Assembly: GCA_048886685.1 (NCBI GenBank)
Contig: JBHLKM010000010.1
Location: forward strand, 87,946 to 151,945
Source of the DNA: Candidatus Hodarchaeota archaeon
Lineage (GTDB): Archaea > Asgardarchaeota > Lokiarchaeia > Sigyniarchaeales > SOKP01
Reading direction: 5' to 3'
Length of the DNA stretch: 64,000 nucleotides
Shown: in pieces, positions 4,370 to 10,928 of the stretch
Layout of the letters: each line of letters opens with the position of its first letter
Numbering within the stretch: the first letter of the stretch is position 1
The notes under the pieces: generated by a model
The model's input: the letters and a program-made list of their open reading frames with translations, nothing else
What the model was told of the DNA's origin: nothing
The model's database searches: none
Made by a program: the position numbers and the translations under genes

Positions 4370-4798
4370 TTAAGATGCCTCTTTTTTTAACTTATCAAAT
4401 AATTTCTTGTACTCGTCAATATATTTTTCTTCATTGGATTCATCGATTTTTTGTAAAAGTTCAATAGATTTAGTTAATACTTCAGACTTTTTCTTTATTT
4501 GTTCAAGAAATTGCTGCTTATTAAAATGAGCCCTTGAAATATCGATCTTATCTTTTACCTCTAAGATTGATGTTTCAATTTCTTTTTGTGATTCAATTAC
4601 GCTATTAATTACACCCAATTCTAGTTTTTTCTTTCTTTCGTCTAGCTTTATACAATTTTCACAAACAATTTCTTCGTCCTTTTCTTGCTTTCTTAATTTT
4701 TCTCCTTTATTCATCATAAAGGGATTCTTACAGCGCTCACACGCGACAAGCTCCAGCAAAAGCTTATCAGAGTTGGAATTGGGCATATTAAGAATCAA
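4370..4798 (-). CDS. Hypothetical protein, CxxC...CxxC Zn-finger plus coiled coil
   Basis: CERC and CENC pairs followed by a K/E-rich helical tail. Confidence 0.6.
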   Translation of the reverse strand: MILNMPNSNSDKLLLELVACERCKNPFMMNKGEKLRKQEKDEEIVCENCIKLDERKKKLELGVINSVIESQKEIETSILEVKDKIDISRAHFNKQQFLEQIKKKSEVLTKSIELLQKIDESNEEKYIDEYKKLFDKLKKEAS

Positions 4799-5717: not shown

Positions 5718-5811
5718 GGTTAATTTATAAATTTATAAATTTTAAAACTTAATCTTTAATTGGATAGAGATTAATAAAAACATTAAAAATAACTATAGGA
5801 GGAGTAATTTC

Positions 5812-6042
5812 ATGGTAAAAGTAAAAGATATTGAAAATCTAATGGATGATTTTATGATTGAACCAGATGATAAATTTATTGATATAAAAAGATACCTTCT
5901 TAGTGAATTCGAATGGAAAGTAGATCCTTTAAAAAAATCTCAATTTATGATTAGAGGCATTCCTATAGAAGATGATATGAAATTAGGTGACCTTCTGAAA
6001 GCTTATTTGCCTGAAGAAATGGTTGTTCTGAAAGAACTATAA
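5812..6042 (+). CDS. Small ubiquitin-like (beta-grasp) protein without C-terminal GG
   Basis: 76 aa, strong SD (AGGAGGAG). Aligns by eye to ubiquitin: IEPDD/VEPSD, DIK/NVK, FMIRGIPIEDDMKLGD/LIFAGKQLEDGRTLSD. Confidence 0.6.
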   Translation: MVKVKDIENLMDDFMIEPDDKFIDIKRYLLSEFEWKVDPLKKSQFMIRGIPIEDDMKLGDLLKAYLPEEMVVLKEL

Positions 6043-8315: not shown

Positions 8316-9149
8316 ATGAGCGAAATTTCATTTGCAGATGTTGAAGGAATAAAATTATCTTATAGAATTAAGGGTGAAGGATATCCCATCTTTCTTATAC
8401 ATGGTTTTGCAAAAAAAGAATTCTGGATTGGGCAAATAGATGCTTTATCCAAAGAGTTTAAAGTGATTTGGTTTGATAATCGCGGAGTAGGAGAATCTGA
8501 TCGTCCAAATATGCCTTATACAATGAAGATGTTAGTAGAAGATTTAAAAGATTTAATGGATTTACTTGATATTCAAAAAACTCATTTAATAGGTCATTCA
8601 CTTGGGAGTTTTATAGCTCAAAACTTTGCTTTAACATATCCTGAGCGTGTTAATAAATTAATACTACTAAGTACAAATCCAGGGTTACCAGATAAAAAAG
8701 GTGCTGATATATTTAAAGACAATCAAATTGCTCTATATGAAGCAAGGATTGCAGATCCTATTGCTGGTTTCTATACCAAGATGAAAGTAAGATTTACACG
8801 CGAATTTCTCAAAATGATGAGAGCTGATCCTACGAAAAAATTACATGGAATCTTTTCTGCTGAAGATCTTATTAAGAGTGAAAATGAGAATCCTTGGACT
8901 CCTCAAGATATTATTAATCATTCTAATGCATTAGCAGATCATAATACATTAGATAACCTCCATAAAATTAAGCATGAAACCTTGATAATTGCTGGAGAAA
9001 AGGATAGATTAACCCCAAAAATATCAAATGAACAAGTTCATAAAAAAATTCCTAATAGTGAACTTAGAATTGTTTCAGGAGGGCATTATTTTCCATTAGA
9101 AAACGCACCTGAGGTAAACAAAATAATTTTCGATTTTCTTAAAAGCTAA
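8316..9149 (+). CDS. Alpha/beta hydrolase (paralogue 1)
   Basis: HGF, DNRGVGES, GHSLG nucleophile, GEKD, GHYFP. Confidence 0.9.
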   Translation: MSEISFADVEGIKLSYRIKGEGYPIFLIHGFAKKEFWIGQIDALSKEFKVIWFDNRGVGESDRPNMPYTMKMLVEDLKDLMDLLDIQKTHLIGHSLGSFIAQNFALTYPERVNKLILLSTNPGLPDKKGADIFKDNQIALYEARIADPIAGFYTKMKVRFTREFLKMMRADPTKKLHGIFSAEDLIKSENENPWTPQDIINHSNALADHNTLDNLHKIKHETLIIAGEKDRLTPKISNEQVHKKIPNSELRIVSGGHYFPLENAPEVNKIIFDFLKS

Positions 9150-9166
9150 GATACGTTCTACTTATT

Positions 9167-10012
9167 ATGACAGAAGCTTTTGCTGATGTTAATGGTATAA
9201 CAGTTTGCTATGGTATTCAAGGTGAAGGTTTTCCATTAATCCTTCTTCACGGTTTTGGCTCCAAAAAAGAGAGCTTTATGGCACAAATCCCTGATTTATC
9301 TAGGCATTTCCAGGTTATCACGGTTGATATGAGGGGGGCTGGAAAGAGCTCAAGACCAAATTACCATTATTCTATGGACATGTTTGCTGATGATGTTAAA
9401 GGATTGATGGACTACCTAAAGATTGATACGGCTCATTTAGTTGGTTTTTCATTTGGGGGGATGATAGCTCAAAAGTTTGTCTTGAAATATCCTTTACATG
9501 TAGCTAAACTTATTCTTATCAATACATCAGGTTTACTGAAGATACCCAAGGAGTATGATCCGGAACCTTATATTCAATTCAGAATAAAAAGTTTAGAATT
9601 AATTAAACATGATCCTGTTAAAGCTTTTTGGCAGAGTACTCAATTAGGATTTCCTCAAGAATTTAGGGAAGAAATGTTGGCAAATCAGAAGAAGAAATTC
9701 TACGGATTATGGTCTGTGGAAGATCTTATTGATTATTACACAACTGATCCTCCTACACCTCAAGACATTCGAAATATTGCATATTCTTTCAAAACTTTAA
9801 ATTTTTCTAATAGACTACATGAAATTAAGAATGAAACTCTATTACTTACAGCATCTCATGACGTTCTCGTTCCTAAAGAAAGAATGTTTGAGATGCACAA
9901 GTTATTAACAAACAGTATGGTTAAAGTAATAGAAAAAGCAGGTCATGAATCTCCAAAATCTAATGCACCGGAAGTAAATCAAGCCATCATTGAGTTTTTA
10001 GGAAGAAATTAA
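9167..10012 (+). CDS. Alpha/beta hydrolase (paralogue 2)
   Basis: HGF, DMRGAGKS, GFSFG, ASHD, GHESP. Confidence 0.9.
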   Translation: MTEAFADVNGITVCYGIQGEGFPLILLHGFGSKKESFMAQIPDLSRHFQVITVDMRGAGKSSRPNYHYSMDMFADDVKGLMDYLKIDTAHLVGFSFGGMIAQKFVLKYPLHVAKLILINTSGLLKIPKEYDPEPYIQFRIKSLELIKHDPVKAFWQSTQLGFPQEFREEMLANQKKKFYGLWSVEDLIDYYTTDPPTPQDIRNIAYSFKTLNFSNRLHEIKNETLLLTASHDVLVPKERMFEMHKLLTNSMVKVIEKAGHESPKSNAPEVNQAIIEFLGRN

Positions 10013-10088
10013 CGCAAAATTATTAATTACTAAATTATTAGTAAATTTATCACTATTAGAAAATTTTAATCTTGGTTTATGGGGATTA

Positions 10089-10928
10089 ATGATGAAAGAA
10101 GCATTTGCATTTATAAATGGTGTTAATATTTGCTACGAGATCTATGGAGATGGAGATCCAGTATTATTAGTTCATGGATTTGGAGCAAAGAAGGAATCAT
10201 GGATTGCCCAAATAAGCCCTTTATCAAAGCATTTCAAAGTAATAAGATTCGATAACAGAGGCGCAGGAAAGTCGGATAGACCAGATGGTCCTTACACTAT
10301 GGAAATTTTCGCAGATGATATAAATTCATTATTAGATCATTTAGAAATTGAGAAAACCCATATCATTGGCTGGAGTTTAGGAGGGATGATTGTACAAAAT
10401 TTTATATTAAAATATCCTCAAAGGATTAACAAAATGGTGTTAATTAATACAAATTATGGTATACCTGATGAATCCGGGGCGGAAACATACAAAAATATGA
10501 GATTACAAAATTTAAAATTAAGCAAAGAAGATCCAGTTAAAACATTTTGGCAATCAATCCGAGCAGATTACCATTTCAAGTTTCGCAAGCAAATGGAAGT
10601 AGAACCTACAAAAAAGTGGTATGGTTTATGGTCAGCTGATGATCTAATCCAAGAGAGCATTATAGACCCCCCAACTGAGAAAGATATAATAGTTCAAGCT
10701 AAAGCACTGGCAACACACCATACTTTTGATAGATTACATGAAATTAAGAACGAAACATTACTGATAACTTCTACTCATGATAGAGTTACACCACAATCTG
10801 TTATGGAACAAATGCACGAGAAGATCTCAAATAGTACACTAAAAGTTATTGACAAAGCGGGTCATGGTTCACCCCGATCTCGAGCTCCAGAAATAAATCA
10901 AATGATAATAGAATTCTTAAAAAAGTAA
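10089..10928 (+). CDS. Alpha/beta hydrolase (paralogue 3)
   Basis: HGF, DNRGAGKS, GWSLG, STHD, GHGSP. Confidence 0.9.
   Translation: MMKEAFAFINGVNICYEIYGDGDPVLLVHGFGAKKESWIAQISPLSKHFKVIRFDNRGAGKSDRPDGPYTMEIFADDINSLLDHLEIEKTHIIGWSLGGMIVQNFILKYPQRINKMVLINTNYGIPDESGAETYKNMRLQNLKLSKEDPVKTFWQSIRADYHFKFRKQMEVEPTKKWYGLWSADDLIQESIIDPPTEKDIIVQAKALATHHTFDRLHEIKNETLLITSTHDRVTPQSVMEQMHEKISNSTLKVIDKAGHGSPRSRAPEINQMIIEFLKK

Follow-up and report, generated by a model that had tools for sequence, protein, structure and literature searches.

The window, the whole stretch of 64,000 nucleotides analysed here, belongs to contig C10 of a 4.4-Mb genome and contains an open reading frame of 76 aa (P0001), with an ATG start and a TAA stop, whose sequence matches the one quoted earlier (Table 1). 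The initial annotation had described its product as a non-conjugatable, eukaryote-type ubiquitin-like (UBL) adaptor of an Asgard archaeon, encoded by a gene with its own intergenic spacing and a strong Shine-Dalgarno (SD) sequence. The spacing was confirmed: the gene is set apart from TauE by 94 bp on its upstream side and from a UbiA-like gene by 215 bp on its downstream side. The SD-like sequence is also present, but it is a local feature that is not generally conserved, since only 14 of 40 relatives carry such a word. The upstream word ATAAA[TC]TT, which was chosen by eye, occurs in 24 of 40 upstream regions compared with 8% in the genome background, these 40 regions being kin and not independent samples. 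In G222 and G185, both rated 100% complete, the ORF has been cleanly deleted with its neighbours left intact, and the remaining 75-bp spacer still carries the AT-rich motif, which is probably a promoter.

Table 1. Features of the P0001 gene and its upstream region (positions in the window).
Feature	Position	Strand	Basis
Gene of the tail-less, remodelled ubiquitin paralogue (P0001, 76 aa)	5812..6042	+	ORF, homologues, dN/dS ~0.10 over 32 pairs
Predicted amphipathic N-terminal helix, residues 4-13	5821..5850	+	AF2 models, hydrophobic moment
Core derived from ubiquitin, residues 14-61 (helix 1, strands 3 and 4, short helix)	5851..5994	+	hhalign, BLASTP
Last strand, residues 70-76, ending at the Arg72-equivalent, without tail and without Gly	6019..6039	+	Models, alignments
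Shine-Dalgarno-like GGAGGAGT, 6 nt 5' of the ATG	5798..5805	+	Read from the sequence
AT-rich upstream motif, probably a promoter	5724..5762	+	Motif count, retention after gene deletion

The gene family and its genomic context

The gene is real and under purifying selection, as seen from 221 homologues at E 0.001 or better, a fixed length (exactly 76 aa in 131 of 141 distinct homologues) and a dN/dS of ~0.10 against 32 syntenic relatives. With a median identity of 79% within the genus, compared with 53-77% for four neighbours, it is conserved like or above its surroundings. Named homologues were Asgard, nearly all of them Promethearchaeota/Lokiarchaeia, in agreement with the assumed host. The survey of Lokiarchaeia suggested at the outset led to a real conserved family, but not to one of wide range: among 398 Asgard genomes searched, 42 carry a single copy, namely the window's genome, 34 of the 51 further genomes of its genus and 7 of the 10 genomes of a second genus, and there was no strong match in other Asgard genomes beyond these two Lokiarchaeial genera. 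A search of 1.8 billion cluster representatives added only few members, with identities down to 39%. Pairwise identities within the family follow those of the neighbouring genes (Spearman 0.4-0.7), consistent with vertical descent.

In a 50%-cluster library, 13 matches were obtained, all of them family members or fragments except one 3011-aa protein (E 1e-4). A search for longer, fused forms gave none, which is weak evidence, and viral contigs searched with P0001 gave no relative. A match in G133 was rejected as chance, because it lies inside an open frame of ~600 aa and the family profile did not recover G133. Literature searches of incomplete coverage, Asgard papers included, gave no description of the family. 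One unusual protein, P0125 (L165:96-425; 109 aa), joins a Cys-rich N-terminus to family residues 20-76, so that exactly the helix region is absent; it is known from one 949-bp contig and is possibly an assembly chimera. Unnamed Bacillota clusters of 84-87 aa in the ESM Atlas score 0.91 by features against P0001 and are leads only.

P0001 is encoded in a block of genes for ACT, methyltransferase, TauE, UbiA-like, CCG Fe-S, radical SAM, alpha/beta-hydrolase and MFS proteins. This block surrounds the family in all long loci, down to 39% identity, with a shifting place for the gene itself and with immediate neighbours that vary between lineages. Across the taxonomic family, genomes lacking the gene also have the block (107 of 132 genomes gave a UbiA match), 20 syntenic loci have no match to the P0001 family, and the gene is missing from near-complete genomes of the same genus; G183 lacks it as well. 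As the block persists without the gene and stays intact after the precise deletions, the context reflects an inherited position and gives no function, the gene is dispensable, and a function deduced from the metabolic neighbourhood was rejected. The family is thus a young, dispensable, lineage-restricted paralogue of two genera. Two further observations concern the block. Three tandem alpha/beta-hydrolase paralogues of 277-281 aa lie at 8316-10928 (+), with tandem copies recurring in relatives. The gene at 4370-4798 (-) encodes a conserved protein of 142 aa that belongs to no family; it has two CxxC motifs, probably ends in a coiled coil and is found in this block across the family.

Relationship to the Lokiarchaeial 84-aa ubiquitin

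Pfam and NCBIfam scans of P0001 gave no family match, PF00240 was matched at E up to 1 neither by 28 family members nor at the locus in the genome scan, and profile searches of PDB sequences led only to unrelated weak matches (neurolysin, SpaO). Weak matches at the end of the phylum search led to an 84-aa ubiquitin of the GG type that itself passes the PF00240 cut-off. It is present in 110 of the 132 genomes of the taxonomic family, and the genome's own copy is P0135 (G000:C5:78468-78719, locus L082). For the P0001-family profile this ubiquitin was the top non-self ORF among 28,521 (E 0.013; next 0.36), and reciprocally the ubiquitin profile placed the P0001 gene third. P0001 reached 13.0 bits against the ubiquitin profile, compared with a maximum of 6.5 for shuffled sequences (n=200), and the divergent members P0127 and P0128 scored no better than shuffles. 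Alignment of the family with Lokiarchaeial ubiquitin by hhalign covered residues 14-61 with a probability of 84% and E 7.6e-6, compared with E 0.06 and 0.59 for the other Ubl types of the genome. BLASTP of a divergent member against a Lokiarchaeial ubiquitin showed 13 of 28 residues identical (46%) across strands 3-4 (pairwise E 2e-8). Over the core, 10 of 46 positions are identical in P0001 and up to 14 of 46 in relatives; in both proteins E-[FY]-x-[WL] follows helix 1 and F-x-x-[RK]-G precedes strand 4, and the K27/D52 positions of ubiquitin are kept.

From these comparisons, residues 14-76 of P0001 are derived from ubiquitin, and the nearest relative is the Lokiarchaeial 84-aa protein. The proposed ubiquitin ancestry was therefore upheld by the reciprocal ranking and hhalign, while the expected closeness to eukaryotic ubiquitin, UBL5 or UBX was not; profile similarity to the ubiquitin clan, missing from Pfam, was obtained through Lokiarchaeial ubiquitin, and the likeness to PF00240 is only indirect. 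Weak phmmer matches of P0001 were nearly all UBL domains (Get5/Mdy2, UBLCP1; E ~0.2). As the parent ubiquitin also resembles Get5 (E 7e-5), this likeness is inherited and nothing specific to P0001. Both genes occur together in 37 of 42 genomes, indicating a paralogue and not a replacement.

The parent has 83-84 aa, its main copy being 93-100% identical in most genomes of the taxonomic family, and combines a strand-like N-terminus with a C-terminus of GG or GG plus 1-3 residues. In contrast, the paralogue lacks the tail, is predicted to have a helix near its N-terminus, mostly carries Ile or Leu at the K48 position and is restricted to two genera. The start codon of the parent gene varies: ATT in 23 of 30 close loci and ATG in 7 (L082:5966-6220 (-); L083-L112), and, in the second genus, ATT or ATA in four loci (L128-L131), the non-ATG starts mostly following a GTGA-type SD.

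Predicted fold and C-terminus

AlphaFold2 models were obtained for P0001 (pLDDT 95.7) and P0129 (pLDDT 91.2), which are 39% identical to each other, from shallow alignments of 24-28 rows. Both show the same layout of a starting strand of 1-2 residues, a helix at 4-13, a helix at ~22-32, a strand near 43-47, a short helix and a last strand. Foldseek with both models gave weak matches (TM ~0.5-0.6, best E 0.014), 50 out of 50 listed being ubiquitin-clan, and the top matches in VIA were also ubiquitin-like, with Z-scores of 4-5.6, values that common arrangements also reach. Helix 1 and strands 3-5, as predicted, can be superposed on eukaryotic ubiquitin, NEDD8 and SUMO (type I UBLs) and on Asgard ubiquitin over ~59 residues (TM ~0.5-0.57, rmsd 2.6-4.0). 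Structural alignment pairs model residues 8-76 with ubiquitin 13-72, and alignments of both models to ubiquitin chains mostly start at ubiquitin residue 12-15, leaving strand 1 and half of strand 2 without a good counterpart. The structure check suggested in the initial annotation thus recovered a ubiquitin-clan fold, although weakly, and without its first hairpin.

An amphipathic helix at 4-13 is therefore predicted to stand for strand 1 of ubiquitin and for the first half of its strand 2. This reading is supported by the hydrophobic periodicity, as the moment of residues 4-14 is highest at 105 degrees and amounts to 2.16 at 100 degrees versus 0.01 at 170, whereas that of parent strand 1 peaks at 180 degrees. 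Further support comes from a near-invariant Asp6 together with Asn, Thr or Asp at position 3 in divergent members, which we take to be a helix capping pattern, and from the ESM Atlas model of a P0001-family cluster (match over 73 of 76 residues, TM 0.74). The landmarks E17-P18-x-D20, I25-K26 and G49..I52-E53-D54..L58-x-D60 and the last strand at 70-75, which had been read by eye, are indeed in register with ubiquitin, but the N-terminal 'VK' does not correspond to strand 1. The fold is thus predicted to be a degenerate beta-grasp, with the core of helix 1 and strands 3-5 and a helix instead of the beta1-beta2 hairpin of the complete five-stranded form, and not the intact eukaryote-type UBL first assumed. 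An upstream non-AUG start that would restore strand 1 was rejected, as the open frame is limited to exactly 76 codons in G180 and G207 and to ~80 in most other cases. An Atg8-like N-terminal helix, suggested by LC3/GABARAP matches (TM ~0.6), was rejected because long alignments had an rmsd above 5 A.

The claimed absence of the conjugation di-Gly was borne out, with Gly-Gly anywhere in 0 of 141 homologues and Gly among the last six residues in 0 of 141. L76 of P0001 aligns with Arg72 of ubiquitin, so that the whole four-residue tail is missing and not just Gly-Gly; the common length of 76 aa is therefore a coincidence. Stop codons vary among 40 relatives, only one of which would gain Gly-Gly by read-through or frameshift, and no conserved route of this kind was found among them. 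By established ubiquitin chemistry, a protein with this C-terminal sequence cannot be expected to be adenylated or activated by E1. As initially noted, there is no E1/E2/JAB gene nearby: matches to E1 (PF00899), E2 (PF00179) and JAB (PF01398) are absent from contig C10 and all located on other contigs. C1 and C11 carry E1/E2/JAB clusters with their own Ubls, and C13 carries an E1/E2 pair; the genome encodes seven JAB/MPN proteins.

Candidate binding surface and possible function

With positions assigned from the ubiquitin register, R48 is invariant and Y28, F33 and W35 are nearly invariant among 141 homologues, K26 and D54, the counterparts of the K27-D52 pair in ubiquitin, are found in 138 and 134 of them, and the Ile44-equivalent (M46 in P0001) is M/I/L/V in 133. 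The K48-equivalent is mostly Ile or Leu, the V70-equivalent is Lys, Arg or Glu (mostly Lys), and the L8 loop is absent. The lack of this loop, of strand 1 and of Gly-Gly and the Lys at the V70 position distinguish P0001 from eukaryotic ubiquitin, NEDD8 and SUMO as well as from Asgard ubiquitin. Asgard UEV domains bind ubiquitin through the Ile44 patch (PMC9192718), and as this patch is remodelled here, plain mimicry is doubtful, while a conserved binding face remains. The likely surface for binding is the hydrophobic face M46/I50/V72 together with R48. Without L8, with Lys for V70 and Ile for K48, the partner probably does not read P0001 as ordinary ubiquitin.

We regard it as reasonably probable that P0001 goes back to a duplicated ubiquitin, refolded at its N-terminus, and now acts as a free module that binds a putative protein partner non-covalently. 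The conserved 84-aa GG-tailed ubiquitin would have been duplicated in an ancestor within this Lokiarchaeial family, as suggested by sequence, and the duplicate would have kept the helix-1/strand-3/4/5 core, in line with profile and predicted structure. It lost the whole four-residue tail, and an amphipathic helix, predicted twice and backed by periodicity, would have replaced the first hairpin. Y28, F33 and W35, which occupy hairpin-facing positions in ubiquitin, would then pack on the new helix. Without E1 activation, the product would be a free, probably monocistronic protein that may bind its protein partner non-covalently. Within this best reading, about half of the weight lies on a ubiquitin or proteostasis partner, with P0001 as modulator or decoy, and about half on a new partner; the role is accessory, not essential. 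The adaptor role named in the initial annotation is putative.

It is possible, but clearly less probable, that a natural hairpin-to-helix fold switch yielded a regulator of the Asgard ubiquitin machinery that cannot be conjugated and acts as a decoy or inhibitor, e.g. towards a JAB protease, the proteasomal ATPase or an E2. It is unlikely that P0001 has left the ubiquitin system to assist a neighbouring metabolic enzyme, either as a small accessory subunit, like the ubiquitin-fold subunit TmoB, or as a chaperone. Candidate enzymes would be the UbiA-like prenyltransferase, the CCG-domain Fe-S oxidoreductase, the AmmeMemoRadiSam radical SAM enzyme and TauE, and the constant block in all long loci would suit this view; however, this block is common without the gene, the immediate neighbours differ among lineages, and the precise deletions spare them.

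An intact beta-grasp of the eukaryotic type that keeps the surfaces of ubiquitin and works as a Hub1/UBX-like adaptor could be argued from the core landmarks in register, the UBL domains among the phmmer matches and the hydrophobic Ile44-equivalent. We consider it improbable given the helix in both models, its periodicity and the Get5 likeness inherited from the parent, and the known marks of these proteins are also lacking. Hub1/UBL5 is marked by a C-terminal di-tyrosine, and UBX by an FPR loop between strands 3 and 4. Neither was found in any of 141 homologues (0/141 each), and there was no UBX Pfam match. The Hub1 structure 4pyu aligned with the model at Z 5.0 (rmsd 2.9, 59 aligned, 7% identity), tied with many UBLs. 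The resemblance to Hub1/UBL5 and to type II UBL/UBX proteins (Get5/Mdy2, Rad23) would be a broad one, that of a non-conjugated ubiquitin-fold binding module, whereas P0001 is unfused, has an incomplete sheet according to the models and is probably of independent archaeal origin. SAMP/ThiS/MoaD (PF02597) had eight matches elsewhere in the genome and none at the P0001 locus, and a terminal Gly-Gly is absent. Ufm1 homologues have been reported from Asgard archaea (PMC12962969); here, Ufm1 (PF03671) had no match at the locus, and the last six residues contain no Gly. P0001 therefore belongs to none of ubiquitin, Hub1, UBX, SAMP/ThiS and Ufm1.

A chance or convergent likeness, with P0001 as an unrelated small alpha/beta protein, would fit the lack of a Pfam/NCBIfam match, the unrelated PDB profile matches and the Z-scores usual for common arrangements, but is very unlikely in view of the reciprocal genome-wide ranking, the hhalign result, the 46%-identical stretch of 28 residues and the uniformly ubiquitin-clan fold matches. 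The S4 domain is a degenerate beta-grasp from which the first two strands have disappeared (Burroughs et al. 2007, PMC1949818) and thus a precedent for the part of the fold missing here, although S4 derives from TGS and binds RNA; an S4-like derivative binding RNA or another nucleic acid, which invariant R48 and aromatic Y28/W35 might suggest, is the least probable reading, as the family is acidic (median net charge -4, range -10 to 0) and its ancestry points to ubiquitin and not TGS/S4. Unlike in S4, its hairpin is predicted to be exchanged for a helix. S4 was absent among the fold matches listed, which are filled by the ubiquitin clan.

If the predicted structure holds, the binding module derived from ubiquitin would represent a rare swap of the first hairpin of a ubiquitin fold for a helix, and Asgard archaea would have made non-conjugated ubiquitin derivatives independently. 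As parent and derivative exist side by side in the same genomes, the fold change is directly testable with two small soluble proteins. The weight of the case is limited to a dispensable gene of two genera that did not give rise to the Hub1 or UBX proteins of eukaryotes; being a young paralogue, it has no bearing on the origin of eukaryotic non-covalent UBLs.

Several ubiquitin-system genes were observed elsewhere in the genome. The cluster at G000:C1:127668-133021 (L135-L137) encodes E1, E2 and JAB proteins together with two Ubls that carry acidic N-terminal extensions and a single terminal Gly (-STAG), and a 264-aa Ubl-domain protein with a hydrophobic N-terminus. At G000:C11:510-2796, the gene of an 84-aa Ubl with a terminal Gly-Gly is clustered with E2, E1 and JAB genes. 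A 544-aa protein (G000:C13:124925-126559) with two weak UBC/E2-like matches under the cut-off and a C-terminal Cys motif is possibly of UEV type. A 277-aa fusion (L134:1477-2310 (-), equal to G000:C2:401620-402453) joins a Roadblock/LC7-like domain, itself a weak match under the cut-off (E 0.0086), to a C-terminal PF00240 domain ending in -STAG.
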